A stretch of 60,999 bases of DNA, taken from the IMG/VR virus record IMGVR_UViG_3300044568_003707, positions 1-60,999 of that record; one strand, written 5' to 3'. Of the stretch, positions 1,604-21,552 are shown piece by piece; position 1 is the first letter of the stretch; the number at the start of each line of letters is the position of its first letter. Below the pieces are notes generated by a model that made no database searches, was not told the DNA's origin, and saw only the letters and a list, made by a program, of their open reading frames with translations. A program made the translations under genes and the position numbers. This stretch comes from a virus. Lineage: Duplodnaviria > Caudoviricetes.

Positions 1604-2629
1604 ATGAGTGAACGTAAATTAGCTTCTATACAGAAAATAACGGAAATCCTACCAATTGACGGTGCGGATAAGATTGTGTGTGTAAAAATTCTGGGGTGGC
1701 AATGCGTGGCACTAAAGACTGAATTTAAAGTCAATGACGCTTGTGTTTTTTTTGAAATAGATAGTGTTCTTCCTATCGCACAATGGAATGATCATCTAAG
1801 AAAAGAGCCAAATAAGCCATTGCGTATAAAAACAATACGACTTCGTGGACAATTGAGCCAAGGATTGGCTATGCCAATGTCTATTATTCCAACTGGAGAA
1901 TATGAAGTGGGTCAAGATGTCACTGAACTTGTTGGTGTTACTAAATACGAACCTGTTGTGCCTGCACATCTATCTGGTATGGCCAAAGGAAACTTTCCAG
2001 CATTTTTACATAAAACTGATGAAACTCGTTTACAATCGGAACCAAGAGTGCTTGATGAAGCCATATCCAAAGGTCTTGTGCTCGTTGGCACACTCAAAAT
2101 GGACGGTACAAGTTTTACTGCATATCGAAGAGACGATGAGTTTGGCGTGTGTTCTCGCAACCTTGATTTAAAGGAAACGGAAGATAATGCTCATTGGAGA
2201 ATGGCTCGCAAGTTGAAACTTGAAGAAATTCTTCGCAGCGAACCTAGCAATCTTTCTATTCAAGGTGAAATTGTAGGTCCGTCTATTCAAGCAAATCGTC
2301 TTGGTTTATCGGAATCTAAGTTGTATTTATTCAATCTATTTGATATAGACACAGGGAAATATCTTAGTCACACCGAACTTTCTGCGTTTGCAGAAAAGCA
2401 TGGATTGAAAGTGGTTCCAACTGTGTATCGTCTTGATTTTGGCGGTGTTGTTGGTCCAAGAGATGTCAATCATTTGCTCAATATTGCCAACAATCTGAAC
2501 TATGACAACGGTACACCAGCCGAAGGCATTGTTTGGCGTTCTATGTGTGAAACTCACAGCGATGTTCTCAAAGGTAGATTATCGTTCAAGACAATATCAA
2601 ATAGATATTTGGAAAAATATAAAGAATGA
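1604..2629 (+). CDS. RNA ligase, Rnl2/DRB0094 family
   Basis: N-terminal RKLASIQKI..I.GADKI module; KTDETR; motif I KMDGTS; QGEIVG; EGIVWR; FKTISNRYL. Confidence 0.9.
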   Translation: MSERKLASIQKITEILPIDGADKIVCVKILGWQCVALKTEFKVNDACVFFEIDSVLPIAQWNDHLRKEPNKPLRIKTIRLRGQLSQGLAMPMSIIPTGEYEVGQDVTELVGVTKYEPVVPAHLSGMAKGNFPAFLHKTDETRLQSEPRVLDEAISKGLVLVGTLKMDGTSFTAYRRDDEFGVCSRNLDLKETEDNAHWRMARKLKLEEILRSEPSNLSIQGEIVGPSIQANRLGLSESKLYLFNLFDIDTGKYLSHTELSAFAEKHGLKVVPTVYRLDFGGVVGPRDVNHLLNIANNLNYDNGTPAEGIVWRSMCETHSDVLKGRLSFKTISNRYLEKYKE

Positions 2630-2711
2630 TCGTCATATAGTATATAAGGCTGTATATACATATATAAAAAGTTTTTTACAATTTGCGTTGTATATATAAT
2701 ATGTATTTGCG

Positions 2712-3173
2712 ATGAAACTCGCAACATATATTATATTATTATTGGCACCATTCTGCCATGTTTATGGCAGTGATATGGTACATTCTTTTAAGAGTTCTTC
2801 GTTCAACGGAGCCAATTTTTCCGCAACTGCAATGACGATTGAGAACTTAGCACGCACTCGCAAACAAACAATAAAAGACATTGCAGTATCAAAAGCCGAA
2901 CAAGCAACAGCACAGGCTCAAAACACACCGTTAAACACATTTATAAACAATTTGCAGGCAAGAATATACTCACAACTGGCTTCGCAAGTTACAGACCAGA
3001 TATTCAATTCTGGTGGAGCAACATTTGGTATAATAAATCTTCAAGGTGGAGCAACTGTTACATGGCAACGCAATGGCGATTTTGCTACACTTTTTATAAA
3101 CGACCCAGCAAGCGGAAGTACCACTCAAATAACCGTTCCAGTCGGTTCATTGACACCGATACCATCAGGATGA
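2712..3173 (+). CDS. csgF: Curli assembly CsgF-like protein
   Basis: Signal peptide; MVHSFKSSSFNG; FINNLQARIYSQLA; TTQITVP; directly upstream of CsgG. Confidence 0.8.
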   Translation: MKLATYIILLLAPFCHVYGSDMVHSFKSSSFNGANFSATAMTIENLARTRKQTIKDIAVSKAEQATAQAQNTPLNTFINNLQARIYSQLASQVTDQIFNSGGATFGIINLQGGATVTWQRNGDFATLFINDPASGSTTQITVPVGSLTPIPSG

Positions 3174-4832: not shown

Positions 4833-6011
4833 ATGAACAAAATTGTTACATTGTTTTTGATGTTCTTTCTGTGGAACAATGTTTATGGTGCTGTGGGTAA
4901 ATTGACAGAGGTGACTGGCCCTACACAAGTTAGTAGGGCCAGTACCAAATTGGATGGTAAGGTTGATGTGGGTATAGAAATAGATGATACCATCGAAACT
5001 TTAAAATCGCGTGTTGGTATAACATTTGAAGATGGTACCAGAGTACAATGCACCGAGTTTAGCAAACTTGTTATAGATACGTTTGTGTATGATCCAAGTA
5101 GTGGAAAAGGAAAGCTTGCAATGAAGGCAACAATGGGAACGGTGAGATATGCTTCTGGATTGATTGCCAAAAATAATAAAGAAGAAGTAAAAGTAAAAAC
5201 TCCCACGGCATCTATATCAGTACGTGGCACAGATTTTTCAATGACAGTTGATGAATTGGGCAGAAGTTTGGTTATTCTTTTACCATCCCAGCCACAATTT
5301 GGACCTTCCGTTGTTGGTCAGATAACAGTGAGTAATGGACTTGGAACAGTTGTATTGACCAAAGCATATCAGGCTACATTTATAGCATCAAGTTCTGTTG
5401 TACCATCTTCTCCAGTGATTTTGAATTTTGACGACGAAAGTAAAGTGAACAATATGTTGTTGATTGATACACCAAAAAATGTCACACAAGCTGCAAAAGA
5501 AGCAAAGAAAGCATCTGTTGGTTCAGAAAAAGAAGATGATGGTGGAGACAAAAACAAAAAGATGGAAAAGAAAGAAACAAAGTCCGAGAGCAAATCCGCT
5601 GGTACATCAGTTGCTCAAGTTGACGGAGGTTCGACTGAGGCTCCAATCGAGGAGACCCACTCAACTGTCAATGTGGTCCAAGAAAATATTACTATAAAGC
5701 TTGATATAAACGCTATAAGTCCAAGCACCAATGTTGCTGTCATGGATGCAATTGCGGCAAAACAATCTATACAATCCGTACAACCGACATCAATAGCACC
5801 AATTATATCCACGCCAACTTCTACAGTAAATAATGGCTTTACAACGAACGGAACGCATGCTATATTGTATATAACCAATGGAAATAATGTGGTGTGGTAT
5901 ACTCTAAAGGCTGATGCCAATGCTATATTCAATATAACTCAAAATACTGAATCAAAGGAATATCCATTGAACTTCGGTTCTAAACTTAAAGTTAATATAA
6001 TTCAAAAATGA
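4833..6011 (+). CDS. FecR-domain protein
   Basis: Signal peptide; ITFEDGT, VKTPTASISVRGTDF, GQITVSN. Confidence 0.85.
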   Translation: MNKIVTLFLMFFLWNNVYGAVGKLTEVTGPTQVSRASTKLDGKVDVGIEIDDTIETLKSRVGITFEDGTRVQCTEFSKLVIDTFVYDPSSGKGKLAMKATMGTVRYASGLIAKNNKEEVKVKTPTASISVRGTDFSMTVDELGRSLVILLPSQPQFGPSVVGQITVSNGLGTVVLTKAYQATFIASSSVVPSSPVILNFDDESKVNNMLLIDTPKNVTQAAKEAKKASVGSEKEDDGGDKNKKMEKKETKSESKSAGTSVAQVDGGSTEAPIEETHSTVNVVQENITIKLDINAISPSTNVAVMDAIAAKQSIQSVQPTSIAPIISTPTSTVNNGFTTNGTHAILYITNGNNVVWYTLKADANAIFNITQNTESKEYPLNFGSKLKVNIIQK

Positions 6012-8068
6012 AATCTCATATTCTTAAACTATTTGGCGTCGGTTTGCTGATATTAACTGCACTTGTTGTGCTACGCATACAAGATTCATATCCAATAGAA
6101 GTAATGAGGCTCAAGGGATTGGACTATTATCAACGCACACAAGACAAAGTAAAAAGTGAAAATATCATCATTGTTGAAATTGATGAAAAAAGTTTAGAAG
6201 AAAAAGGACAATGGCCGTGGCCAAGAAATGAATTGGCAGATGGTATCAAGAAAGCATTTGAAAATGAAGCAGCTACTGTAGTATTGCCAATTATATTTGC
6301 GGAAAAAGATAGAATGGGTGGAGACGCAGCATTTGTGGAAATATTGGGAAAAGCACCCGTAATCACAGCACAATCTGCGGCAGTAAAGGGCAAAGGCGTA
6401 CCAGTATCAAGAGGTATGGCAACGATTGGCGGCAGTGCAGATGGATGGTTGTATGATTATCCCAACGCAATTGGACCGATAAAAGAAATAGGTGAATCGT
6501 CTGCTGGTGTGGGAATGTTATTGACGGCACCTGAACTTGATGGTGTGGTACGTCGCTTGCCGTTGGTTGTGCAAGTAAAAAAAGAAACATATCCAACTTT
6601 ACCTTTGGAAGTGTTGAGAGTGTTTGGAAATGAACCGAGCTATCAAGCAAAAATCAATGAAGCCGGAGTGCAAGCCATAAGAGTAAAAGGCTCTGCTCCA
6701 ATAAATACAGATGCTAGTGGTAGAGTATGGATAAACTTCAAATACAAGTTTGATAATATTTCATATACAGATAAAGATTGGAGCAAAGTCAAAGGTAAGA
6801 TTGTGGTTATAGCATTGACTGCTGAAGGATTAACAAACACGGTGGCAACTCCTGTAGGAACAGCATATGGACACGAAGTTAGTATGCAGACGCTACAAAT
6901 GTTGGTTGATGGAAACAGATTGGAACGCAAAGCGGAGTTTGATTTATATGAGTTGGCAGTTGGAACATTGCTTGGATTGATTCTTGTAACATCCGCTGCA
7001 TATCTTGGCTATGTTTATAATGGAATATTGATAAAAGTATCTGTGTCTATGTGTGTATTTATTGGATTTTATTTGTTCAACAAGCATGGTTATTTGATTG
7101 ATTATACTTGGCCGATTATGGCAGCATTTTTGCCGTGGGTTGGATCAATATTTATGAGATTTGTAATGGAGTTCAAATTGAAGATGCAAATCAAGAAGCA
7201 GTTTGGTACATATTTGTCGCCAGCACTGGTTGAAAAACTACAAAAAAATCCGGGCTTGCTCAAACTTGGTGGCGATGAAAGAGAATTGAGCATCATGTTC
7301 ACAGACGTTCGTGGATTTACATCTATTTCAGAACATTATGGTAAAAATGTACAAGGTCTGACAATGATAATGAACAGATATATGACTGCTATGACAGAAG
7401 CCATTCTAAAAAATGATGGTACTCTAGATAAATATATAGGGGATGCTCAGATGGCATTCTGGAATGCTCCATTGGATGATCCAAATCACGCCAAGAATGC
7501 CGTAAAAACGGCACTGCAAATGCTAAAGAGATTGGATACATTCAATGAAGAAATATCTAAGGAAGGAGTTCCGGCTTTTGGAATGGGATTGGGAATCAAC
7601 ACTGGGGGCGTCGTCGTTGGCAACATGGGTTCTACTCAGCGTTTCGACTATACTTGTCTTGGCGACCATGTAAATCTTGCTTCTAGATTAGAAGGTCAAA
7701 GCAAACCATATGGTGTACGTATTGTTATTGGTACAAGAACATTTGAGCACATCAGAAATGATTATCAATGTTTTGAACTTGATTGTATCGCCGTCAAAGG
7801 TAAAAAAGATGGTACGAGAATTTATACCGTTCTTGAAAAAAACTTGAGTGAAAGCCAGTATAACATAGTTGTATCTGGTCATTTTGCTTTTCTAAATGAT
7901 TACAGAATGCAAAGATGGGATAGTGCAATATCTCATGCCAATGAACTCATGACGCAGAATAAAGAAATGAAGAAGTATTATGAAATGATGATTGAAAGAA
8001 TGTTGGAACTTCGTACCAGCAATATTGACAAACATTGGGACGGTATTTTTAGAGCAACCTCCAAGTAA
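6008..8068 (+). CDS. CHASE2-domain class III adenylate/guanylate cyclase
   Basis: GQWPWPR and DGVVRRLPL (CHASE2); 3 TM segments; FTDVRGFT, DKYIGDA, GDHVNLASRLEG, VKGK. Confidence 0.93.
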   Translation: MKSHILKLFGVGLLILTALVVLRIQDSYPIEVMRLKGLDYYQRTQDKVKSENIIIVEIDEKSLEEKGQWPWPRNELADGIKKAFENEAATVVLPIIFAEKDRMGGDAAFVEILGKAPVITAQSAAVKGKGVPVSRGMATIGGSADGWLYDYPNAIGPIKEIGESSAGVGMLLTAPELDGVVRRLPLVVQVKKETYPTLPLEVLRVFGNEPSYQAKINEAGVQAIRVKGSAPINTDASGRVWINFKYKFDNISYTDKDWSKVKGKIVVIALTAEGLTNTVATPVGTAYGHEVSMQTLQMLVDGNRLERKAEFDLYELAVGTLLGLILVTSAAYLGYVYNGILIKVSVSMCVFIGFYLFNKHGYLIDYTWPIMAAFLPWVGSIFMRFVMEFKLKMQIKKQFGTYLSPALVEKLQKNPGLLKLGGDERELSIMFTDVRGFTSISEHYGKNVQGLTMIMNRYMTAMTEAILKNDGTLDKYIGDAQMAFWNAPLDDPNHAKNAVKTALQMLKRLDTFNEEISKEGVPAFGMGLGINTGGVVVGNMGSTQRFDYTCLGDHVNLASRLEGQSKPYGVRIVIGTRTFEHIRNDYQCFELDCIAVKGKKDGTRIYTVLEKNLSESQYNIVVSGHFAFLNDYRMQRWDSAISHANELMTQNKEMKKYYEMMIERMLELRTSNIDKHWDGIFRATSK

Positions 8069-8090: not shown

Positions 8091-8534
8091 ATGAAATATA
8101 TGAAAACAAAACTACTATTAGCAATACTTCCGTTGGTGCTATTGACTTCATGTGCCAACTCTCAAGGTGATGTGTTTGGACGCAAAGCAGATGCTGGTGC
8201 CATTATTGGTGGCATGGCTGGAACCGTGATTGGTGCTTATAACGGCAATGCTCTCAAGGGTGCTATTATTGGTGCTGGCGTGGGTTTGGGTGCTGGTGCC
8301 ATTGCAGATACCAATGATGCTCACCAAACTCAAAATAGACCAATGATATATCGCGAACAGCCTGTTCAACAAACAGAAGTTGTTGTGGTTCAACAACCTA
8401 TTGTGATAGAAGAGCGTGTATGGGTCGGCCCGGACCTATGGGTATACTCATATCATGGCTATAGGCACAATGGCAGAATATATTATCGTGGACCGCACGC
8501 ACCATTTCATCGTCGCCCCGCTTTTAGACGCTAA
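8091..8534 (+). CDS. Glycine-zipper lipoprotein
   Basis: Lipobox LLTSC; GAIIGG..G..IG and GAIIGAGVGLGAGA. Confidence 0.75.
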   Translation: MKYMKTKLLLAILPLVLLTSCANSQGDVFGRKADAGAIIGGMAGTVIGAYNGNALKGAIIGAGVGLGAGAIADTNDAHQTQNRPMIYREQPVQQTEVVVVQQPIVIEERVWVGPDLWVYSYHGYRHNGRIYYRGPHAPFHRRPAFRR

Positions 8535-8542: not shown

Positions 8543-8917
8543 ATGATTTCATTTCCTAAACCAGAGGTGCATCCCAAAGGCTGGGGTGCCGAGACTTGGC
8601 TGATTAATTGCCCTGATTATTGTTCTAAATTTTTAGATTTTAAAAAGGATTCTCGTGGAAGTATGCACTTTCACGACAAGAAGCACGAAACTTGGTACAT
8701 TTTATCCGGACAAATTTCCGTTTCGTGGGTGGACGCACTCAATGCCCAAAAACATTCTCGCATTATTAGCGTGGGAGAAATGGTAGATATTCCTCGCCTT
8801 CAAACGCATCAAGTTCACGCTCTTGAAGATACTCGTATTCTTGAAGTGTCTACTCAGCATTTTGAAGATGACTCTTATCGAGTACTAGCAGGTGATTCTC
8901 AAACACAAATCAAATAG
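8543..8917 (+). CDS. Cupin protein (sugar isomerase-like)
   Basis: KGWG.E.W; SMHFH..KHETWY; H..EVST.H..DDSYR. Confidence 0.8.
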   Translation: MISFPKPEVHPKGWGAETWLINCPDYCSKFLDFKKDSRGSMHFHDKKHETWYILSGQISVSWVDALNAQKHSRIISVGEMVDIPRLQTHQVHALEDTRILEVSTQHFEDDSYRVLAGDSQTQIK

Positions 8918-8968
8918 TTGTTATAATAAGATATTTGCAAAAAATGTCACTTTTTTAGAAAAAAGTGT

Positions 8969-8997
8969 TTGACTTTTCATTTTTTCTTCATCATAGT
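8969..8997 (+). promoter_or_regulatory. Sigma70-type promoter for the leader transcript
   Basis: TTGACT-17nt-CATAGT with an upstream A-tract. Confidence 0.65.
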
Positions 8998-9017
8998 TCT
9001 ATTTATCAATAACAAAC

Positions 9018-9131
9018 ATGAACTCGTATTCACACAAATCGCTAAATCTCGTCTCCAAGTGGAGCTTGTGCTTTATTACACAACCTACACGTGGAGCCAA
9101 TAAAGGCGATACTACGGAGGGTGTGGCATAA
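9018..9131 (+). CDS. Putative attenuator leader peptide (37 aa)
   Basis: MNSYSHKSLNLVSKWSLCFITQPTRGANKGDTTEGVA; all 20 amino acids; 3' end complementary to the downstream terminator arm. Confidence 0.65.
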   Translation: MNSYSHKSLNLVSKWSLCFITQPTRGANKGDTTEGVA

Positions 9132-9165
9132 TAGGAGTTAAAGTTTAATAACTTTACAAAACCTA

Positions 9166-9199
9166 AAAAGCCCACCCTCCAAAAGAGAGTGGGTTTTTT
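9166..9199 (+). terminator. Intrinsic terminator / attenuator hairpin
   Basis: AAAAGCCCACCCTC-CAAAA-GAGAGTGGGTTTTTT with one C.A mismatch and a U tract. Confidence 0.8.
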
Positions 9200-9210
9200 G
9201 TTTTTGGAGT

Positions 9211-9360
9211 TTTTAGAAAAAAGTTAGAAAAAAAGATTGACAAAATAAAAAAAGTAAGTAGAGTAAATGAAGTTAAATGCGGAAAGTTTTTGAAAGCAAA
9301 GTTTAGAAAAAAGAAAGTAGTAAAAAAGATTGACAAAGTATAAAAAGTAAGTAGAGTAAG
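9211..9360 (+). promoter_or_regulatory. Tandem duplicated sigma70-type promoters for the stable-RNA region
   Basis: Two near-identical units AAAAAAGA-TTGACA-16nt-TAGAGT (TTGACA at 9237 and 9330) with A-tracts upstream. Confidence 0.7.
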
Positions 9361-9380
9361 AAGTATCAAATTTAAGTTAG

Positions 9381-9392
9381 GTTCTTTTAACA
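9381..9392 (+). promoter_or_regulatory. boxA-like antitermination element
   Basis: GTTCTTTTAACA compared with rrn boxA GCTCTTTAACA; lies just after the tandem promoters. Confidence 0.5.
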
Positions 9393-9740
9393 ATTCAAAT
9401 TTTTAGGTTAGGTTAGATGGGTAAAAACGCACCTGTAAGCGCGATAAAATAGCCACCGGCCCATTTAGGGACCGTTCTGTGGGAATCAATATCATTATGT
9501 AGGTCAGAGATAGGTTAGATGAAAACATAATGTGAGGCCGAAGTATATAATGTTATTTATAAAGTTGAAGAAAGAAGCAACAAGACACGTATTTAGCGTG
9601 TTGAGTTTCTTTCTTCATATGTTCTGCGTAATATACAACCTCCTCGTGGTGCAGAGCGGGACAAAATAAAAAAATATTTTGTGCGAATAGTATAGTTAAA
9701 AGAGTTTTTATATAATATTTATTATTAACATTAAAAAAAT

Positions 9741-10058
9741 ATGGAAGATAAAGATATACTGATGGAGTTTTTAAGAGGCGGATGGATTGTTGCGCTGATT
9801 GGAGCACTGGGTATGTTGGCAAGAACTTTCATGGATGGTGTAAAACGTTCTTTTACAGAACAAATTAAACGAATCATAGCAGCAGCAATATGTTCTACAA
9901 TAGCATGGTTTATTTTAGAACAAGTAGAAGTAAGTAGCTTGACAAAAGCAATTAGTTATGGCATAACTGGTGTGATAAGTCCAGAAATTCTTCAAGGTAT
10001 AACAGTATTATCAAAGAAATTTGCTAAGAAACCAGAAGATTTCTTGAAAAAAAAATAA
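9741..10058 (+). CDS. Small membrane protein (holin-like)
   Basis: About 3 hydrophobic segments and a basic C-terminus. Confidence 0.6.
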   Translation: MEDKDILMEFLRGGWIVALIGALGMLARTFMDGVKRSFTEQIKRIIAAAICSTIAWFILEQVEVSSLTKAISYGITGVISPEILQGITVLSKKFAKKPEDFLKKK

Positions 10059-10063
10059 TTTTT

Positions 10064-10138
10064 GCATCGGTAACTCAATGGTAGAGTATCTGTTTTCCAA
10101 ACAGAATGTTGCAGGTTCGAGCCCTGTCCGTTGCACCA
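10064..10138 (+). tRNA. tRNA-Gly(TCC)
   Basis: Cloverleaf; TCTGT-TTTCCAA-ACAGA; CCA encoded. Confidence 0.92.
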
Positions 10139-10257
10139 ATTTGCAAACGCCACGTCATTGGCGAAATTGAGGTTGACTCAAATGACAATTTTTTTGGCCA
10201 AAAAAGGTGAAGAAGTAGTAATTAAGCTTCTTGTGACCAAGCTGAAATGTAATACGT

Positions 10258-10335
10258 GATTCATTAGCACAGTCCGGTAAAGTGCGCCCTACGTTGAGTA
10301 GGGAGACGTGAGTTCAAATCCCACATGATTCGCCG
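10258..10335 (+). tRNA. Atypical or pseudo tRNA (TTG in loop, G33)
   Basis: D arm GCAC/GTGC; anticodon stem CCCTA/TAGGG with loop CGTTGAG; mismatched T stem; no CCA. Confidence 0.55.
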
Positions 10336-10406
10336 CGACCTACATTTCTAAAAACTTTATTGTAAATATGTAATGTTTTCGGACTTCAAGTCTATATTTA
10401 TTACAT

Positions 10407-10847
10407 ATGAAACAAAACCATAAGATCAAAGTATCGGACGCAGATGTAATTAAGGCATACAATTCCAAACTAACATTACACAAAGCCGCAAGTTTTCTTG
10501 GTGTAACTGTCATAACCTTATGGAGACGAGCCAAAAAACTCAATCTGGCTTGGAAAGACAAAAATTATAGAGGAACCAACAGTGGAACAAAAATTCCTTT
10601 ACAAGAAATTCTAGAAGGAAAACACCCCGACTATCAAACATTTAAGTTAAAAAACAGACTTATAGCAGATAAAGTAAAAATGAATAAGTGTGAAGTGTGC
10701 AGTATATCGGAATGGAATAATCGAGCATTAATAATGCAGCTTGACCACATAGATGGAGACCCGCATAATCATAGACTTGAAAATTTAAGAATGATTTGTC
10801 CAAACTGTCACTGTCAAACTCCAACTTGGTGCGGTAAAAACAAATAA
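10407..10847 (+). CDS. HNH homing endonuclease
   Basis: CEVC...LDHIDGDPHNHRLENLRMICPNCH; N-terminal HTH-like segment. Confidence 0.9.
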   Translation: MKQNHKIKVSDADVIKAYNSKLTLHKAASFLGVTVITLWRRAKKLNLAWKDKNYRGTNSGTKIPLQEILEGKHPDYQTFKLKNRLIADKVKMNKCEVCSISEWNNRALIMQLDHIDGDPHNHRLENLRMICPNCHCQTPTWCGKNK

Positions 10848-10854
10848 TTTTTAT

Positions 10855-10941
10855 GGGTATGTCGCATAGCGGCAATTGCAACGCACTGTAAATGCGTCGG
10901 CCTAACGGTCTCCGATGGTTCGAGTCCATCCATGCCCACCA
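10855..10941 (+). tRNA. tRNA-Tyr(GTA)
   Basis: Cloverleaf, long variable arm, CCA. Confidence 0.93.
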
Positions 10942-10953
10942 TTTTTAGAATAC

Positions 10954-11041
10954 GGAAAATTGGCAGAGTGGTCTAACGCAGGACTTTGCTAAAGTCCCGA
11001 TCCGAAAGGGTCCATAGGTTCGAATCCTATATTTTCCGCCA
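10954..11041 (+). tRNA. tRNA-Ser(GCT)
   Basis: Cloverleaf, long variable arm, G73, CCA. Confidence 0.93.
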
Positions 11042-11052
11042 AATTTATATAT

Positions 11053-11127
11053 GCCGAATAAACATAAATGGTAATGTGCTAGTCTTGTAAACTAGATAAG
11101 CGGGTTCGATTCCCGCATTTGGCTCCA
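11053..11127 (+). tRNA. tRNA-Thr(TGT)
   Basis: CTAGT-CTTGTAA-ACTAG; CCA. Confidence 0.92.
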
Positions 11128-11135
11128 CGATTTAT

Positions 11136-11211
11136 GCAGTAGTAGTTCAATGGTAGAATGCTTCGTTGCCAACGAAGAGGTCTGCGGGTTCAAGTCCCGC
11201 CTACTGCACCA
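11136..11211 (+). tRNA. tRNA-Gly(GCC)
   Basis: CTTCG-TTGCCAA-CGAAG; CCA. Confidence 0.93.
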
Positions 11212-11221
11212 TTTTTTAAAT

Positions 11222-11297
11222 GCCGTGTGACATAGCTGGTTGTGATGACCCCTCTGCAAAAGGGAGGAGATTGGTTCGATTCCAATACACGGCTCCA
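11222..11297 (+). tRNA. tRNA-Cys(GCA)
   Basis: Loop CTGCAAA; U73; CCA. Confidence 0.88.
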
Positions 11298-11300
11298 TTT

Positions 11301-11404
11301 TGTTGTGTAGTTCAGAGGTAGATCACTGACGGGATATGATGGTAAAAGACACCGAAAAAGTTCCCTATAAGCAGATGCCGATGGTTCGAGTCCATCCATA
11401 ACAA
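11301..11404 (+). ncRNA. tRNA-like RNA with enlarged anticodon arm
   Basis: Acceptor TGTTGTG/CATAACA; D arm; T arm GATGG-TTCGAGT-CCATC; ~50-nt structured arm replaces the anticodon arm; no CCA. Confidence 0.6.
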
Positions 11405-11414
11405 ATAATTTTAT

Positions 11415-11492
11415 GGCCATGTGACGCAACTGGATAGTCGTGTTACGCTTAGAACGTAAATGTTGGGGGTTCGAGTCCCTCCATGGCTACCA
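11415..11492 (+). tRNA. tRNA-Leu(TAG), short variable loop
   Basis: TTACG-CTTAGAA-CGTAA; 5-nt variable loop; A73; CCA. Confidence 0.88.
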
Positions 11493-11579
11493 TTTTGTCA
11501 ACGAAAAACGCGGACTGATAGACCGCAAGTAGTTTTAATCTCAAACAGGAAAAACTTATCTCCATGTGAGACGACAAAA
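11493..11579 (+). ncRNA. Structured inter-tRNA RNA, unknown
   Basis: Closing stem TTTTGTC/GACAAAA; inner helices GCGG/CCGC and TCTCA/TGAGA. Confidence 0.4.
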
Positions 11580-11587
11580 AATTTTAT

Positions 11588-11665
11588 GGGCGTGTGACGT
11601 AACTGGATAACCGTGTTTCATTCAAAATGAAAATTTTGTGGGTTCGAGTCCCACTATGCCCACCA
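11588..11665 (+). tRNA. tRNA-Leu(CAA), short variable loop
   Basis: TTTCA-TTCAAAA-TGAAA; 5-nt variable loop; CCA. Confidence 0.88.
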
Positions 11666-11667
11666 TT

Positions 11668-11789
11668 TTTGATAGTGTATGTGTTTTCGTCTCTAAAATC
11701 TTACGGCACATGGAAGACGTGTAACGGGTTCAAAGTCCGACCACTTTGCATTGAGCAGAGTGAGTAAGCCAACCATATACATTATCAAA
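11668..11789 (+). ncRNA. Structured inter-tRNA RNA, unknown
   Basis: 16-bp closing stem TTTGATAGTGTATGTG/CATATACATTATCAAA including G.U pairs. Confidence 0.55.
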
Positions 11790-11798
11790 TATTTTTAT

Positions 11799-11874
11799 GG
11801 GAGTTTGGTGAAGGCGGTCCTCACGTCGCACTGAAGATGCGAAGAAGTTGGTTCAATTCCAACAGCTCCCACCA
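11799..11874 (+). tRNA. tRNA-Phe(GAA)
   Basis: TCGCA-CTGAAGA-TGCGA; CCA. Confidence 0.92.
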
Positions 11875-11880
11875 TTTTAT

Positions 11881-11954
11881 TGAGATATATTGTAGTGGCA
11901 GCAAAAGAGTCTCTGAAACTCATAGCATTGGTTCGATTCCAATTATCTCATCCA
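11881..11954 (+). tRNA. tRNA-Gln(CTG)
   Basis: T1-A72; loop CTCTGAA; CCA. Confidence 0.88.
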
Positions 11955-12119
11955 TTTTATTATACAACAACTGCGGAGATAGTAATTCCAAAAAAGTTGT
12001 TACTGTATGAGTAGAAGATATCGTGAGTTAATTACTATATCACGTGAAGCGAAAAATATAGGATAATATAAAGGTGACGCCTCATCTTGAATGGGTTAAA
12101 TTCCCAAAGGCATTTTTAT

Positions 12120-12194
12120 TCCCATCGGGCTGGCATGGTGTTAAGCACGTGACTGTTAATCACGATAAGCGTGGATCGTTACCACGGGTGGGAG
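12120..12194 (+). tRNA. tRNA-Asn(GTT)
   Basis: CGTGA-CTGTTAA-TCACG; T loop ATCGTTA; CCA not encoded. Confidence 0.85.
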
Positions 12195-12305
12195 CTTTGG
12201 TGTGAATTGAACATGAAATAATACTGTTAATTCATATCGTTTTGTTCGAGTCCATGCAGATATATACAATCCAATTCATGGTAAATCTTACTGAAAAATT
12301 TATAC

Positions 12306-12384
12306 GGAAGCCAAGCTACAGTGGACGGGCATTCGACTCTTAATCGAACTATTCGTGTGGGTTCAACTCCCACGGCTTCCACCA
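12306..12384 (+). tRNA. tRNA-Lys(CTT)
   Basis: TTCGA-CTCTTAA-TCGAA; CCA. Confidence 0.9.
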
Positions 12385-12389
12385 ATTTC

Positions 12390-12466
12390 GAGCAAGAAGA
12401 GGCTGTTAAAGTCAGCATGGACATTACAAGATGCTAAATGGTGATAAGTGAATTCACATCTTGCTT
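12390..12466 (+). ncRNA. Structured inter-tRNA RNA, unknown
   Basis: Closing stem GAGCAAGA/TCTTGCTT. Confidence 0.35.
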
Positions 12467-12477
12467 AAAAAATTTAT

Positions 12478-12561
12478 GGTGTCGTCCCCATAGCGGCGAT
12501 TGGTTCCGGCTTTTAACCGGAAATATAAACATCGTGGGTTCGAGTCCCACCGGCACCACCA
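12478..12561 (+). tRNA. tRNA-Lys(TTT), enlarged variable loop
   Basis: TCCGG-CTTTTAA-CCGGA; 12-nt variable region; CCA. Confidence 0.88.
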
Positions 12562-12567
12562 TTTTAT

Positions 12568-12650
12568 AGCAGAGACAAGCCAAGGGACGCTAACTGCGCT
12601 CATAACGCAGCCGAAAGGTATGATGTGTTCGATTCACATCTCTGCTTCCA
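12568..12650 (+). tRNA. tRNA-Met/Ile2(CAT), enlarged variable arm
   Basis: CTGCG-CTCATAA-CGCAG; variable hairpin CCGAAAGG; CCA. Confidence 0.8.
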
Positions 12651-12657
12651 TTTTTAT

Positions 12658-12733
12658 CAGTGTGTGGTGCCAAAGGTTGGCGATTCCGCTTGGAACGGAA
12701 ATTATGTTGGTTCGAGTCCAATCACACTGACCA
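12658..12733 (+). tRNA. tRNA-Pro(TGG)
   Basis: C1-G72; TTCCG-CTTGGAA-CGGAA; CCA. Confidence 0.87.
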
Positions 12734-12796
12734 TTTTAACATACACAGTAGTCCTCTTGATTTATATCAATGACAATAATGGCTGTGTGAAACTTT

Positions 12797-12871
12797 GGGG
12801 TGGTAGCTTAATGGTGAAGCACCAGCTTGTCACGCTGTAGATTGCGAGTTCGAATCTCGTCCATCCCGCCA
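12797..12871 (+). tRNA. tRNA-Asp(GTC)
   Basis: Loop TTGTCAC; G73; CCA. Confidence 0.92.
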
Positions 12872-12905
12872 CTTTTACGATTTGAATATGGACGCATATT
12901 CATTC

Positions 12906-12986
12906 GTCGCGTCTGATTCAAGGTGACTGGCAGTCCTTGTGGCTGGGTTCTAGACTAAGTTGTTTCGACTACAACGGCGCGACACA
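12906..12986 (+). tRNA. Degenerate tRNA-His-like gene (8-bp acceptor)
   Basis: GTCGCGTC/GGCGCGAC; T arm GTTGT-TTCGACT-ACAAC; TTGTGGC loop on a poorly paired stem; ends ACA. Confidence 0.5.
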
Positions 12987-12998
12987 TTTAAATTTTAC

Positions 12999-13072
12999 GG
13001 GGATATAGTATAAGGGTATTACGCTGCTCTGTCTAAGCAGATATCGGATTTCGATTATCCGTATCCTCGCCA
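12999..13072 (+). tRNA. tRNA-Asp(GTC), second divergent copy
   Basis: CTGCT-CTGTCTA-AGCAG; G73; CCA. Confidence 0.85.
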
Positions 13073-13184
13073 TTTTGCATGTAGTAAAACATGAAATTAT
13101 GATTGGCCAACGAAAGAACTGAAATCATGACAGCGACGGTAAAGCTCCGGGTCGCTATATAAATTCTGGCGCTTACGATTTTAT

Positions 13185-13260
13185 GGGAATATAGTGAAAT
13201 TGGACATCACGACGCTTTGCGGAGGCGTTATTCTAGGTTCGAATCCTAGTATTCCCACCA
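13185..13260 (+). tRNA. tRNA-Arg(GCG)
   Basis: ACGCT-TTGCGGA-GGCGT; CCA. Confidence 0.9.
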
Positions 13261-13266
13261 TTTTAT

Positions 13267-13343
13267 GGAGACGCTGGCAAAGTAGAGCCGACCTCGCTTC
13301 GAACGAGTTATAACTATAGGTTAGAGTCCTATCGTCTCCACCA
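13267..13343 (+). tRNA. tRNA-Arg(TCG), atypical D/T loops
   Basis: CTCG-CTTCGAA-CGAG; T loop TTAGAGT; CCA. Confidence 0.78.
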
Positions 13344-13348
13344 ATTTT

Positions 13349-13502
13349 TGAGCGGCAGCGTGGAAGGACATGCAGCCTTGAGAAGTTCTATTACGCACAG
13401 TATATTGTACATAAAGCTGTGCCTCTGAAACGAAGCGATGACTACCTAATAGATCGGGTCAGATTCAATGTCATCAATAGGTATCAAACCCTACCCGCTC
13501 AA
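13349..13502 (+). ncRNA. tRNA-like RNA with ~100-nt central domain
   Basis: Acceptor TGAGCGG/CCGCTCA; D-like arm GCGT-GGAAGGAC-ATGC; T-like arm TAGG-TATCAAAC-CCTA; inner helices GCACAG/CTGTGC and TCTGA/TCAGA. Confidence 0.55.
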
Positions 13503-13509
13503 ATTAATT

Positions 13510-13713
13510 TTGAATAGCAGCTCGGAGTGTAGGAAAGTTTTTTCCTTTCCGGTACGAGCATGGGGTTAAACCATCAGCGGAAAAATAAGCAACGAAAAGC
13601 CTCTAGGTTCATAACAATATGTTAAATGGAAAAATAATAACATGTTGGAATTTATGCGTAACTAAGAAACTCGCTATAGTGTAGCTATATAAAGCAAAAC
13701 TACACCTATTCAA
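13510..13713 (+). ncRNA. Structured RNA, unknown (~200 nt)
   Basis: Closing stem TTGAATAG/CTATTCAA; several inner hairpins (GCTCG/CGAGC, GGAAA/TTTCC, GTGTAG/CTACAC). Confidence 0.45.
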
Positions 13714-13769
13714 TTAATTTTATGAGTTATAATAAAGTTTTGATATAATATATACTATATATATTATAT

Positions 13770-14012
13770 ATGAACATATCACCAATACAATCATCGGCTG
13801 AAACAAATAGTTCACCAGTAAACATTCAATCTGCGGCTAAAATATATAGTAAAAATAGCCCAGTATCACTCAGTACAAATGCATCTGGATTTTTTGCAAA
13901 TGCTGAAGCTGACGTTGTGCATGATCTTAAAAAAGCTTTGATGGCTGCAATAAATTGTGGAGATTTTGACAAAGCTATACATATTTTAAAATGTTTAAAA
14001 GAACTGGGATAA
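13770..14012 (+). CDS. Hypothetical protein
   Basis: 80-aa ORF with AT-rich leader. Confidence 0.6.
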   Translation: MNISPIQSSAETNSSPVNIQSAAKIYSKNSPVSLSTNASGFFANAEADVVHDLKKALMAAINCGDFDKAIHILKCLKELG

Positions 14013-14031
14013 TAATATATAAACAATTTAC

Positions 14032-14111
14032 AGAGAGTAAAGGGTACTGCCACTGGGATTATCGCGGTGGGTTCACGTAGCGTAATAAGCACACATGACC
14101 AAACACTCTCT
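14032..14111 (+). ncRNA. Structured RNA containing a 23S H44-like hairpin
   Basis: Closing stem AGAGAGT/ACTCTCT; GCGTAATAAGCACAC at 14080-14094. Confidence 0.4.
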
Positions 14112-14117
14112 AATATT

Positions 14118-14214
14118 TGAACAGAAGTCTAGTTGTTTGTAAAACAGGAGTCGGTGTAATCATATTGATGTTTTTCAACAGGCAACCGTGCGCGGAATAA
14201 TCGGGTGCTGTTCA
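14118..14214 (+). ncRNA. Structured inter-tRNA RNA, unknown
   Basis: Closing stem TGAACAG/CTGTTCA. Confidence 0.35.
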
Positions 14215-14221
14215 TTTTTTT

Positions 14222-14296
14222 GGCCCTATAGAATAGAAGTTAGTTCGCCTGACTTTCAATCAGGAGATGTGGGAGCGTTACCCACTGGGGCTACCA
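14222..14296 (+). tRNA. tRNA-Glu(TTC), atypical elbow
   Basis: CCTGA-CTTTCAA-TCAGG; D loop AG; T loop AGCGTTA; CCA. Confidence 0.85.
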
Positions 14297-14300
14297 ATTT

Positions 14301-14570
14301 TTGTTGAGGAGGTTGGCTTAGAGGCAGCAATCCTATAATGAGTAGAGTCCGTACTCCAAGCAAGTAAAAGTGCAGCGATGAATTCTTGAATTCTGCATTT
14401 TCCATTACCAACTATAATGGTTTTGCATGGAGGCAATTCAGACGATTGAACCGATAAGAACTAAGGAATTGACCTTAGCTCGGTGCCGAAAATGTAAGCG
14501 CAAGTATAGTTGTTATATATTTGGCCGCGAAACGGTATCAGCTCTTTTGGCGTAATAGCACACTCTTCAA
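14301..14570 (+). ncRNA. 23S rRNA L11-binding domain (H43-H44) mimic with 206-nt insertion
   Basis: GAGGAGGTTGGCTTAGAGGCAGCAATCCTATAATGAGT-[insert]-GCGTAATAGCACACTC aligns to 23S ~1053-1106. Confidence 0.75.
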
Positions 14571-14575
14571 AATAA

Positions 14576-14645
14576 CCCATGCCTGCACACGCAGGAAAGT
14601 TGGTATTTGGCACGGGAAACCGCCAACCATCTATCCTATCATGGG
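14576..14645 (+). ncRNA. Small structured RNA, unknown
   Basis: CCCATG/CATGGG closing stem; CCTGC/GCAGG and CGG-GAAA-CCG hairpins. Confidence 0.4.
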
Positions 14646-14656
14646 AACAATTTTAT

Positions 14657-14735
14657 GGCGATATCGTCTATGTTTGAAAAGGACAGGATATTCTCAATAT
14701 TCAGAGGTCGGTTCGACTCCCGACTATCGCCACCA
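14657..14735 (+). tRNA. tRNA-Glu(CTC)
   Basis: GGATA-TTCTCAA-TATTC; CCA. Confidence 0.82.
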
Positions 14736-14793
14736 TTTTATAATAAATAGTTCAAATTAGTTCAAATTCAAGATTTGAATGATATTTATGTAT

Positions 14794-15441
14794 ATGCACT
14801 ACTTGATATACAAGGTCACTAACAAAGTAAACAATAAAATTTATGTTGGTAAGCATAAAACAAATGACAAGAACGATAGCTATCTAGGGTCCGGCGCAAT
14901 TATTAAGAGGGCCGTTACGAAGTACGGTAAGGATGCTTTCCAAAAAGAAATACTTTACGAATGTGAAAACGAGGATGCGATGAACCGCAGAGAAGCCGAG
15001 ATAGTTGACGAAGAGTTCATAGCTCGTCAAGACACATATAATATAAAGCTCGGCGGTAATGGTGGATGGGACTTTATAAACAAGAATGCCCTTTTCAACG
15101 GAGTAAAACACCGCGCAGCGGCACGAGAAAATATAAAAAAAGCCAGTAAGGGATACAAAATTTGGTTTAAAAGTTTATCTACCGACGAGAGGGAAGAATA
15201 CATGGTAAAAAGGATGTTGGGAATTCGGCTATTTCAAGAGACGCATGGGGGCACTTTCAAAGGAAAGTCACACTCAGATTTAACGAAAGAAAAAATGCGA
15301 AAAGCGAGATTGGGTAAGGTGAGTGGAAAAGATAATCCATCATATGGAACAATGTGGATAACAAATGGTGTTGACAATAAGAAGATACACAGAGATACTA
15401 CGATTGCTGTTGGTTGGAAAAAAGGTAGAATAATAAAATAA
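14794..15441 (+). CDS. GIY-YIG/NUMOD3 homing endonuclease (Seg-like)
   Basis: LIYKVTNKVNNKIYVGKH; YLGSG; YNIKLGG; FKGKSHSDLTKEKM; GTMWITNG; GWKKGR. Confidence 0.9.
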   Translation: MHYLIYKVTNKVNNKIYVGKHKTNDKNDSYLGSGAIIKRAVTKYGKDAFQKEILYECENEDAMNRREAEIVDEEFIARQDTYNIKLGGNGGWDFINKNALFNGVKHRAAARENIKKASKGYKIWFKSLSTDEREEYMVKRMLGIRLFQETHGGTFKGKSHSDLTKEKMRKARLGKVSGKDNPSYGTMWITNGVDNKKIHRDTTIAVGWKKGRIIK

Positions 15442-15447
15442 TTTTAT

Positions 15448-15522
15448 TGGGATGTCGTATAAAGGCTATTACCTGCGGCTTTGACCCGCATGATCGTCGT
15501 TCAATTCGACGCATCCCAGCCA
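15448..15522 (+). tRNA. tRNA-Gln(TTG)
   Basis: TGCGG-CTTTGAC-CCGCA; CCA. Confidence 0.9.
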
Positions 15523-15616
15523 TTATATAGTTGACGGGTTGTAAAAACATATTCGAATTGTGTTTGATAAAACTTCGATACTCTCCATTTTTGTATATTA
15601 GTATACTTATAAAAGT

Positions 15617-15817
15617 ATGAGCGACATGACATCAAATAATTTGATTATACGCAGAATGATTGATAAGAAAACATCTTATACAGCAATTTTTTTAAAAGGA
15701 GAACAACCAAGAATTTTCCCTACAGATGATTATGAACATGCTCGTATTTTACAGATATACAAGCAAGATAGAAAATATGAAGGTATAATAAACGATTTTA
15801 CAGATTTTGATTTATAA
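15617..15817 (+). CDS. Hypothetical protein
   Basis: 66-aa ORF preceded by a TATACTTAT motif. Confidence 0.65.
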   Translation: MSDMTSNNLIIRRMIDKKTSYTAIFLKGEQPRIFPTDDYEHARILQIYKQDRKYEGIINDFTDFDL

Positions 15818-15820
15818 AAT

Positions 15821-15898
15821 GGTAGAGAAGCACAAGTAGTTATATGCTCTCGTTTGATAGACGAAGGACAGTGAGTGCAAGTCTCACCTCTACCACCA
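15821..15898 (+). tRNA. tRNA-Ile(GAT), atypical elbow
   Basis: Loop TTGATAG; D loop AG; T loop TGCAAGT; CCA. Confidence 0.8.
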
Positions 15899-16021
15899 AT
15901 TTTCTTCACCCGAGACCGCCTATCTCATGTAAAAATGATGATGGACTCAATCTGAAACTACAGATGATGACATATGACGATATGTATAGGGCAATCTTTT
16001 ATACGTTGACAAAACCATATT

Positions 16022-16365
16022 TTGTATTGTATATGTATACAAATGTTATCCGTATATAAAAAATATAAAATAGAATGCCAGTTTAGATTTGTAATAAAAA
16101 ATTATCCAAACGAATTTGATTTTGCATTGGTAGAAAAACATGGATGGTATTCACCAAAAAATCACGGCAATAATCCATTTGGAGTAAGCAGAGATCATAT
16201 CATGTCAGTAAAGTGGGGATTTGATAATGATATTGATCCGAAATATATTCGCCACCCCGCAAACTGTCAGTTATTGAAACACAACGACAATGTAAGAAAA
16301 GGAAAAAAAAGAATCAATAACACTTGACATTTTATTAGAAAAGATTAGAGTTTGGGATAGTAAAT
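16022..16365 (+). pseudogene. Truncated, frameshifted HNH-like endonuclease
   Basis: SRDHIMSVKWGF..IRHPANCQLL..N..K; an extra A in the A8 run at 16303-16310 shifts a plausible C-terminus (ESITLDILLEKIRVW) out of frame. Confidence 0.55.
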
Positions 16366-16372
16366 ATTTTAT

Positions 16373-16444
16373 GGGCTTATAGTGATAATGGCAGCACAGT
16401 TGATTTGCATTCAACAGGTTGGGATTCGATTTCCCATAGGTCCA
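16373..16444 (+). tRNA. tRNA-Ala(TGC)
   Basis: G3.U70; GTTGA-TTTGCAT-TCAAC; CCA not encoded. Confidence 0.88.
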
Positions 16445-16524
16445 GGTCCGAGTATAATCATAACCTCCACGCGGTTCGGACTGGAACAAGTATATTATAC
16501 TTGTACTAATAATGATTATTTTAC

Positions 16525-16603
16525 ACCAGGGTCGTCTAGCGGCTATGACAACTGCTTTACATGCAGTCTATAATCGGGGGTTCGAGTCCCTCCCTTGGTA
16601 CCA
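16525..16603 (+). tRNA. tRNA-Val(TAC)
   Basis: ACTGC-TTTACAT-GCAGT; CCA. Confidence 0.9.
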
Positions 16604-16673
16604 TTTAGCATATTGAGGGTAGCCCCTTGGTGGTGACGATATACCTTATCACGTCAAATTTTTAGAGTTTTTT

Positions 16674-16748
16674 CGGTGTGTAGCCTAGAGGACAGGCACC
16701 TGTTTTGGGAACAGGACCACGTGTGTTCGATCCACATCGCACCGACCA
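16674..16748 (+). tRNA. tRNA-Pro(TGG), second copy
   Basis: CCTGT-TTTGGGA-ACAGG; CCA. Confidence 0.92.
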
Positions 16749-16758
16749 ATTTTTTTAT

Positions 16759-16834
16759 GGCGTTTATAGTGTAGTGGTTCGCACACAAGTTTGTGAAACT
16801 TGAAGGACGATTTCGAATATCGTTGGACGCCCCA
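16759..16834 (+). tRNA. tRNA-His(GTG)
   Basis: G-1:C73; CAAGT-TTGTGAA-ACTTG; CCA. Confidence 0.9.
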
Positions 16835-16845
16835 ATTTGATTTAT

Positions 16846-16922
16846 AGGTGGGTCGCATAATTGGTATTGCAGCAGTCTCCAAAACTGCCACCCTGTGGGT
16901 TCGAGTCCCACCCCACCTGCCA
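16846..16922 (+). tRNA. tRNA-Trp(CCA)
   Basis: GCAGT-CTCCAAA-ACTGC; G73; CCA. Confidence 0.93.
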
Positions 16923-16986
16923 TTTATGTCAATACACAATAATTTATTGGCATAATAATTGCAATGATGTGTATATATTTAAAGAT

Positions 16987-17130
16987 ATGTCAAAGAAAAA
17001 AACATCAAAGAAAATTAAACGAGTATCAATGAAAGAAATTGTTGACGCATTTTATTCAGGAATTTCACCCAGTAAAATAGGTAAAATGGCAAAACAACTT
17101 GTAAAGCAACAAGATACCAGAAATTATTAA
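16987..17130 (+). CDS. Small basic hypothetical protein
   Basis: MSKKKTSKKIKR...; start moved downstream of tRNA-Trp. Confidence 0.5.
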   Translation: MSKKKTSKKIKRVSMKEIVDAFYSGISPSKIGKMAKQLVKQQDTRNY

Positions 17131-17211
17131 TTTTAGTTTTTATAACAAACGAATAAAAGTTTTAGAAGATAGTTATGTTGTGTATATACACACCAACCAA
17201 AATAAAATCAT

Positions 17212-18282: not shown

Positions 18283-18369
18283 GTTCCAGCGTAGGACAGA
18301 TGACAGAGAATATAATGTCCACTGTCAAACGCTGGTTTAAAAACTGGTCAGTGTAATCAAAACTCAAAG

Positions 18370-18393
18370 GCTCCAGAAATGGAGCCTTTTTTT
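18370..18393 (+). terminator. Intrinsic terminator
   Basis: GGCTCCA-GAAA-TGGAGCC followed by a T tract. Confidence 0.85.
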
Positions 18394-18555
18394 ATTTACT
18401 ATATGTATATTTATCTATATATGCAAAGCAATGAATTTTCAAAAATGACTCATCGTGAATTTGACCAAACCGGAACTGGTTGGAGAAAATTTGGTGATGA
18501 TCATAAAGCTTCTATCAAAGCTATTTTTCAATTTGCTTTATACATATGTTTATAC

Positions 18556-18647
18556 GGAAGCGTGGGTGAGTGGATAAAAATCGCCTGTCTTGAAAACAGG
18601 AATCGGTTAATAGCCGGTCGCAGGTTCGAATCCTGCCGCTTCCGCCA
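18556..18647 (+). tRNA. tRNA-Ser(TGA)
   Basis: CCTGT-CTTGAAA-ACAGG; long variable arm; CCA. Confidence 0.92.
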
Positions 18648-18653
18648 ATTTTT

Positions 18654-18728
18654 GCAGCATAAACATAAATGGTGATGTGCAAGTTTCGTAAACTTGAAAA
18701 CCGAGTTCGATTCTCGGATGCTGCTCCA
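18654..18728 (+). tRNA. tRNA-Thr(CGT)
   Basis: CAAGT-TTCGTAA-ACTTG; CCA. Confidence 0.92.
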
Positions 18729-18773
18729 TATTGGTATATTATAAGTTCATATATACTATACTTATTGGTAGCT

Positions 18774-19448: not shown

Positions 19449-19554
19449 AACATAACATCGCAGTTTTTATATAAAAATTTAACTTGCCAAATTGGTAAGC
19501 GTGTATCATATTTATCGGTTCAAACGTCTAAAGACGAAAACTAAATAATAAAAT

Positions 19555-21528: not shown

Positions 21529-21552
21529 TAGATATTATAAAGTGTATACTTC

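Follow-up and report, generated by a model that had tools for sequence, protein, structure and literature searches.

The stretch of DNA analysed here (the window) is IMG/VR virus record IMGVR_UViG_3300044568_003707, 60,999 bases in length. CheckV puts its completeness at ~19%; the window is therefore a jumbo phage fragment, and the source of the element described below is a giant (jumbo) lake phage. Cultured phage relatives were found neither by DNA (8960-9420) nor by protein (ORF 19555-21528). Ahead of the tRNA genes of this phage lies a putative transcription attenuator, in which a short leader open reading frame (ORF) is followed by a terminator and an alternative antiterminator pairing. 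The parts of the element are as follows (coordinates are those of the window; nt, nucleotides):

8969-8997, + strand: promoter P1, with -35 TTGACT, a 17-nt spacer and -10 CATAGT (9 of 12 matches); A/T-rich upstream and conserved in relatives.
9018-9131, + strand: leader ORF, 37 codons plus TAA, with the product MNSYSHKSLNLVSKWSLCFITQPTRGANKGDTTEGVA.
9030-9035, + strand: candidate region 1, UCACAC, complementary to GUGUGG in region 2, with which it can form helix H_B.
9038-9043 with 9105-9110, + strand: helix H_A, one pair of which varies (GC 11, AU 5, GU 4, other 8).
9053-9070 with 9079-9096, + strand: helix H_C, with the invariant apical loop GCUUUAUU and two pairs changed on both sides.
9116-9127, + strand: region 2, GGAGGGUG(U)GGC, the last ORF codons, which form the antiterminator 5' strand.
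9132-9165, + strand: hairpin P1, located past the stop codon and ahead of the terminator, and able to form in either fold.
9170-9180, + strand: region 3, GCCCACCCUCC, the shared strand, which is both the antiterminator 3' strand and the terminator 5' arm.
9185-9193 and 9194-9205, + strand: region 4, GAGAGUGGG, the terminator 3' arm (9185-9193), and then the U-run tail (9194-9205).
9237-9264 and 9330-9357, + strand: promoter P2 in tandem copies, TTGACA-16-TAGAGT, with 10 of 12 matches each.

Promoter P1 belongs to a class with the pattern TTGAC[ATC]-N15-18-[CT]A[TG]A[GA]T, which has 15 occurrences on the window's + strand, mostly right before genes, and none on the - strand; a generic promoter scan of the window is not significant alone (18 sites vs. 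12.4 +/- 3.5 in shuffles). The leader ORF encodes 20 different amino acids, and 33 of its 37 codons are distinct. Its 5' untranslated region would be ~13 nt long, A-rich, and without a Shine-Dalgarno (SD) motif, and the start context resembles that of other genes of this phage, which does not use such motifs (4 of 49 long ORFs in the window vs. a 7% background). This hints at a host that may not rely on them either. An AGGAG right after the stop codon was considered as a ribosome-binding site and rejected: no start codon follows it, SD motifs are unused by the phage, and the AGGAG makes up the 5' side of hairpin P1.

Folding places the antiterminator pairs at 9116-9123 with 9173-9180 and at 9125-9127 with 9170-9172, with U9124 bulged, enclosing the helices UAGG/CCUA (9132-9135/9162-9165) and UAAAGUU/AACUUUA (9139-9145/9150-9156). 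The terminator stem (9171-9179/9185-9193) has a C9176.A9188 mismatch, and in the antiterminator C9176 pairs with G9120 instead. The terminator hairpin alone is worth about -11 kcal/mol in the window; a terminator scanner reports the stem on the - strand only, where the mismatch reads G.T. A preliminary description of this DNA had proposed the promoter at 8969, the 37-codon ORF with its amino-acid and codon counts, the pairing 9116-9127/9170-9180 with one bulge and nested helices, a terminator mismatch repaired in the antiterminator, and further promoters at 9237 and 9330; all are recovered here, the two further promoters as tandem duplicates of one.

Relatives (viral and metagenome contigs) were sought via two flanking proteins and a DNA motif from the ORF core, giving 74 places with 29 distinct units. 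An RNA-motif search, which drew on no more of the ORF than its last three codons, together with regions 3 and 4, returned 36 viral stretches, including eight new contigs with four new sequences, all eight of which again hold an ORF with matching start and end. A recount over all loci by a pattern running from region 2 to the U-run gives 31 distinct units. Chance matches were set aside: 17 of 48 pattern matches are unrelated, and 4 of 16 loci (L134, L136, L139, and L142) failed the unit filter. The sole genome-contig match of the RNA motif (L184:3001-3085) was rejected: in this Oscillospiraceae metagenome-assembled genome, the motif falls on the end and terminator of an ordinary sigma-factor-like gene. 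There is no second copy of the element in the window, nor in a relative of 297,258 bp (complete by CheckV).

The two folds compete closely in these units. When only the RNA preceding region 4 is present, the antiterminator is the minimum-energy fold in 31/31 units; at full length, antiterminator minus terminator energy ranges from -7.5 to +3.8 kcal/mol (median 0.1), and the two lie within 3 kcal/mol of each other in 26 of the 31. In alignment A1, 88.5% of antiterminator cells are paired vs. 42-55% with slid partners, and the corresponding values for the terminator-state structure are 85.7% vs. 32-53%. For helix 4 of the terminator the paired share is 88.1%, and one of its pairs has changes on both sides. 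One region 3 base covaries with both its antiterminator and its terminator partners: column 205 (C or U) forms GC 16, AU 9, and GU 2 with its antiterminator partner (column 147), and CG 13, UA 11, and other 3 with its terminator partner (column 216). The third base of the final Ala codon and the base 5' of GCC are A-U in one clade and U-A in another; in 9 of 21 distinct sequences the two do not pair (A.A or A.G). Hairpin P1 is retained with at least five sequences (e.g., UAAAGUU/AACUUUA, GAGACU/AGUCU, GAAAA/UUUUC, and GGAAA/UUUCC).

Codon choice at the end of the ORF is likewise tuned to the switch. The last five codons of the window's leader rank 2 among 512 synonymous versions for pairing with region 3, and the choice falls in the top 4% in 13/13 representatives (ranks of 1-5 among 128-768 versions in 12 of them, and 57 of 1536 in L110). 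These lines of evidence are direct observations, comprising the sequence elements themselves, their conservation, covariation, energetic balance, and codon tuning, and all agree that both folds are maintained.

The reading frame is kept as well. The 31 distinct units all start with ATG and stay open for 37, 38, or 23 codons. In each, the stop codon comes 1 nt after the GGC of region 2 and begins 2 nt beyond the last paired base of that region; by geometry, a ribosome that has arrived there would sit on the antiterminator strand. No stop appears among at least 101 substitutions, although 4.1% of the possible changes at variable sites yield one (P = 0.014). Insertions and deletions within the leader ORF are of 3 and 45 nt, whereas the untranslated parts vary by other lengths. 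In one RNA-library contig the leader start is TTG instead of ATG, and TTG is also a start codon. The product itself drifts: variable sites at codon positions 1, 2, and 3 number 21, 22, and 23, and the ratio of nonsynonymous to synonymous differences (pN/pS) is 0.4-1.3, vs. 0.05-0.29 for the neighboring gene at the same ten loci. Judged from these sequences, an open frame with a near-neutral, drifting product is what would be expected of a regulatory leader ORF.

We consider the element to be a ribosome-dependent (leader-ORF) transcription attenuator of a jumbo phage, present in one copy per genome between promoter P1 and the P2/tRNA block, and place the probability of this reading at roughly 0.55. 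The features of such an attenuator that are present are the conserved short ORF, a downstream intrinsic terminator, an antiterminator that shares a strand with it, and a stop codon beside the antiterminator strand; from these we infer translation of the ORF, a role for the ribosome, and an effect on tRNA output. The P1 transcript would carry the 37-codon ORF as its first 111 nt, and region 2, in the last codons, could pair with region 3 to form the antiterminator around hairpin P1. A lead ribosome standing at the stop codon while the polymerase makes region 4 would cover region 2, leaving region 3 to pair with region 4, and transcription would end at the U-run. A ribosome that lags or stalls within approximately the first 29 codons, or (in the long form) one that never loads, would leave region 2 free to capture region 3. 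Antiterminated P1 transcription would then pass P2 and go on to the holin-like gene and to the first 23 tRNA genes; the next promoter of the P1/P2 class follows these, at 16324. There is no run of any one codon in the leader; the signal would therefore be general translation speed rather than the supply of one amino acid.

Several observations weigh against this reading. One is P2, a conserved promoter of the same class as P1 that begins 38 nt past the U-run and before the tRNA genes. Because P2 lies between the terminator and the tRNA genes, read-through can only add to P2 output, and the regulated share of downstream transcription may be small; the downstream genes of an attenuator would be expected to have no promoter of their own. 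(The P2 duplication, with a unit of ~93 nt, is confined to the window and the L007/L068/L096 lineage; other relatives have a single copy.) The run of regulatory codons typical of attenuators is also absent, no residue being enriched among the 19-20 residues found in 37-38 codons. Three leaders (those of the window, L080, and L098) favor the antiterminator over the terminator state by ~7 kcal/mol; without a ribosome, the terminator might rarely form. In the long form the 1:2 helix (5-6 bp), which would sequester region 2 when no translation takes place, is invariant or weakened, with no compensated pairs, and region 1 codons are untuned for 1:2 pairing (ranks 7/24, 11/16, and 21/24). Three pairs in total of the ORF-internal helices have changes on both sides, and the ORF-internal folding energy is no better than that of synonymous recodings in 6 of 8 representatives. 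Moreover, all relatives share ancestry, so that independent events are few and sequence counts overstate them.

In three lake metatranscriptome runs (two studies), RNA-library contigs that begin close to the leader extend across the terminator (X15, 9037-9649; X16, 9023-9330; X17, 8959-9450), and in these runs there is no cover at 8700-8915. Stretches lacking RNA-contig cover are given no weight. They are a weak hint of read-through; RNA-library contigs cannot reveal RNA ends, strand, or level, and DNA is possibly included, which also counts against leaning on them for the attenuator.

The 23-codon form is a single sequence, identical in four contigs (L153, L154, L159, and L165). It keeps the start, end, and terminator of the long form, lacks the conserved core, and encodes 13 different amino acids. 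Its minimum-energy fold comprises a 10-bp helix that joins codons 3-6 to region 2, followed by hairpin P1 and the terminator, with the antiterminator fold 3.1 kcal/mol higher. This form has the textbook 1:2/2:3/3:4 layout.

The element could instead be a stand-alone small gene, in which promoter P1 drives a 37-residue, trans-acting micro-protein with its own terminator, and the alternative pairing does no more than influence how stable the mRNA is, or arises incidentally where a G-rich ORF end adjoins a C-rich terminator arm. The promoter-ORF-terminator unit is indeed self-contained and has another promoter after it; 11 of 38 peptide columns are invariant and six further columns nearly so; and a similar ORF-end/terminator layout occurs at a normal gene end, in the L184 match noted above, although that match was selected by pattern. 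Gene callers annotate a protein of 37-43 residues in seven clusters. A profile search of 1.84 billion proteins returned those seven clusters, i.e., its own small family only, and no wider family; the one other match, P0008, a 325-residue repeat protein with six FQPTAGANPGRC units, was rejected as a chance match to the peptide profile. No Pfam family matches the 37-residue product. A functional protein of this kind fits poorly with the pN/pS values and the even spread of substitutions across codon positions, and with the 23-codon form, which drops the whole conserved core while retaining start, end, and switch. It also leaves aside the compensated changes that link the last Ala codon to a base ~40 nt downstream, the tuning of codon choice to pairing, and the linkage of the unit to the downstream part: the upstream neighbor varies by clade, whereas the downstream part remains homologous. 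We regard the small gene as unlikely.

Placed below it is a structured non-coding RNA, riboswitch-like, with an incidental ORF; its fold would be set by a protein, small RNA, tRNA, or metabolite, or a terminated RNA of ~195 nt would act in trans. Two conserved, mutually exclusive folds and the lack of codon-position bias would suit such an RNA, and the invariant loop GCUUUAUU suggests recognition by something. This loop is part of a stretch, GCUUUAUU...CAACC (9070-9086; Cys-Phe-Ile..Gln-Pro), that is invariant in 24 distinct coding sequences, including the synonymous Phe, Ile, and Gln sites, while all four bases occur at the third position of its Pro codon. The invariant synonymous sites (Phe UUU, Ile AUU, and Gln CAA) are unaccounted for by pairing, by peptide constraint, or by the attenuator model, and in that respect weigh against the attenuator too. 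As to action in trans, terminated attenuator RNAs can act in this way in Sinorhizobium (PMC7968998). An incidental ORF is at odds with the frame kept open (P = 0.014) by indels in multiples of three, with a start and stop fixed relative to regions 1 and 2 in the long and short forms alike, and with the ATG-to-TTG change, which still leaves a start codon. Rfam gives nothing at gathering threshold over 8969-9236 (best sub-threshold E >= 0.5), and over 9126-9239 the best match likewise has E >= 0.5, with no T-box. We think a non-coding RNA of this kind rather improbable.

The preliminary description went further than a leader-ORF attenuator: it proposed a sensor of tRNA availability that samples nearly every isoacceptor. 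The attenuator structure in that proposal is supported by conservation, covariation, energy balance, and codon tuning, and in relatives the ORF and the covarying switch helices are kept; the sampling of every isoacceptor is not established, the full 20-residue set often being incomplete. The chance calculation it had suggested gives, under the codon usage of the window, P = 0.0035 for 20 amino acids in 37 codons and P = 0.00027 for at least 33 distinct codons. The 20/20 count alone is not compelling because 2 of 190 ATG-initiated ORFs of 30-45 residues in the six frames of the window also have 20 amino acids. All long forms have 19-20 amino acids (P = 0.036 for at least 19 in random 37-mers), and 16 of the 29 distinct units have 19, without one of E, L, C, or H.

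Single-copy residues relocate rather than vanish: Tyr is present in 22/22 peptides (in three columns), Arg in 22/22 (six columns), and Cys in 21/22 (two columns). A tree-aware permutation of derived residues (78-80 inferred substitutions) supports a kept repertoire, with a mean of 18.3-18.8 distinct residues vs. 19.55 observed, a value reached in 0-5 of 2000-3000 permutations (P of 0 to 0.0017). This signal rests on approximately four relocation events. Within codons 1-29/30, where a stall leaves region 2 free, there are only 17-19 amino acids and the permutation p is ~0.03; Asp is absent from this part in 22/22 peptides, as the preliminary description had anticipated in calling the Asp and Glu codons probably too 3' to be sensed, and the Arg gained in one clade lies outside it. 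Codon adaptation is inconsistent across units (2nd to 75th percentile), and rare-codon enrichment of the leader was rejected for the same inconsistency among units.

All 36 tRNA genes of the window lie on the + strand (10064-27556) and jointly cover 20/20 amino acids, a match to a leader that would probe the whole repertoire. In this tentative view, which we also consider rather improbable, selection would retain nearly every amino acid in the leader, and host cleavage or depletion of any one of most tRNAs during infection would slow the ribosome and thereby direct extra P1 transcription into the phage's own complete tRNA set. The strict version, in which the leader is selected to hold every amino acid and depletion or cleavage of any tRNA raises phage tRNA transcription, is the least likely of the alternatives in view of the incomplete sets in 16/29 units, the 13 amino acids of the 23-codon form, the gaps in the senseable part, and the unattenuated transcription supplied by P2.

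Bacterial amino-acid operons provide the textbook examples of leader-peptide attenuation, the classical cases being trp, his, leu, thr, ilv, and pheA. The leader-ORF attenuator proposed here shares with these a short leader ORF and a terminator 5' arm that is alternatively paired with an upstream strand coverable by a ribosome, and the 23-codon form also shares the full 1:2/2:3/3:4 layout. The phage long form has ~85 nt of extra structure between regions 1 and 2, and its 1:2 helix is doubtful. Unlike the classical leaders, which have a codon run for a single amino acid and biosynthetic genes downstream, the phage long form has 19-20 different residues and the element precedes tRNA genes, with a promoter in between. 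There is no sequence relation to Rfam leaders (Thr_leader scores 18.3 bits vs. a threshold of 55).

T-box leaders likewise tie the choice between terminator and antiterminator to tRNA supply; they have a specifier loop and an antiterminator with a 7-nt bulge. The phage element has no Rfam T-box match, no specifier loop, and a single bulged base. Ribosome-mediated attenuators that respond to antibiotics include the erm, bmrCD, and vmlR-type leaders. A further one is the tylosin-induced yxjB leader of Bacillus subtilis (PMC6851288). These leaders have no amino-acid bias, any stall in the leader frees the antiterminator, and the state of translation is sensed; by analogy, they appear closest in logic to the phage element, as drug-responsive leaders sensing stalled ribosomes generally. 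They differ in that the ribosomes are drug-bound, often at a specific arrest motif, and resistance genes are controlled, whereas the phage element has no known arrest motif and is followed by tRNA genes and a holin-like gene. PASIFIC predicts conditional terminators from two mutually exclusive folds (PMC5314783). Such terminators similarly have a strand common to terminator and antiterminator and comparable energies, but constitute a generic structural class that is silent on the ORF, the distinctive part of the phage element. In the accessible portions of the literature searched, there is no description of a leader-peptide attenuator in a phage or ahead of tRNA genes.

The element lies in a setting with a conserved downstream part:

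6008-8068: CHASE2-domain adenylate/guanylate cyclase, the first of three genes just upstream of the leader element.
8091-8534: glycine-zipper lipoprotein-like ORF, upstream of the leader element.
8543-8917: small cupin, the last of three genes ahead of the leader element.
9360-10138, + strand: downstream stretch that read-through would reach, with a conserved non-coding stretch, a ribozyme candidate, the holin-like ORF, and the first tRNA.
9621-9695, + strand: candidate ribozyme of the hepatitis delta virus (HDV)-like type (RF02682), 32.1 bits against a family threshold of 44, just upstream of the holin-like ORF.
9741-10058, + strand: holin-like ORF, ahead of the tRNA array.
10064-10138, + strand: tRNA-Gly(UCC), the first tRNA of the array.
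10407-10847: HNH-endonuclease-like ORF among the first tRNA genes (Pfam matches weak and sub-threshold).
33942-34333, + strand: transfer-messenger RNA (tmRNA) gene (RF00023, 68.2 bits), phage-borne, besides the 36 tRNA genes.

The order leader, P2, non-coding stretch, holin-like ORF, and tRNA array is found in 10/10 unit-bearing relatives with a long downstream flank, and in these ten the array begins with tRNA-Gly(UCC); an eleventh locus of this comparison, L134, has no tRNA, and the unit is not demonstrated there. The L080 leader is near-identical to that of the window (pS 0.08), whereas its holin-like neighbor has diverged far (pS 0.71), a pattern that points to recombination as a process that may move the leader unit between lineages. 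At the place equivalent to the ribozyme candidate, relative L081 (4882-4951) scores 40.3 bits, likewise under the threshold of 44. At the same spot in another clade (L064, L069, L071, L074, and L075, ~4838-4928), ARAGORN reports a 'tRNA-Lys(ctt)' of 79-84 nt, and there is a partial tmRNA-like Rfam match of 28 bits at L074:4844-4927.

To our knowledge, how phages set their tRNA levels is largely unknown. A conserved reader of translation speed at the head of a tRNA array would provide a concrete handle on this control, and the element would extend the known uses of attenuation from a gauge of one amino acid to a gauge of translation in general. In the current view, phage tRNAs counteract host defences that cleave tRNAs (PMC11555353). 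If the leader did act as a whole-repertoire probe, it would constitute a phage-encoded feedback loop against tRNA-targeting defence.

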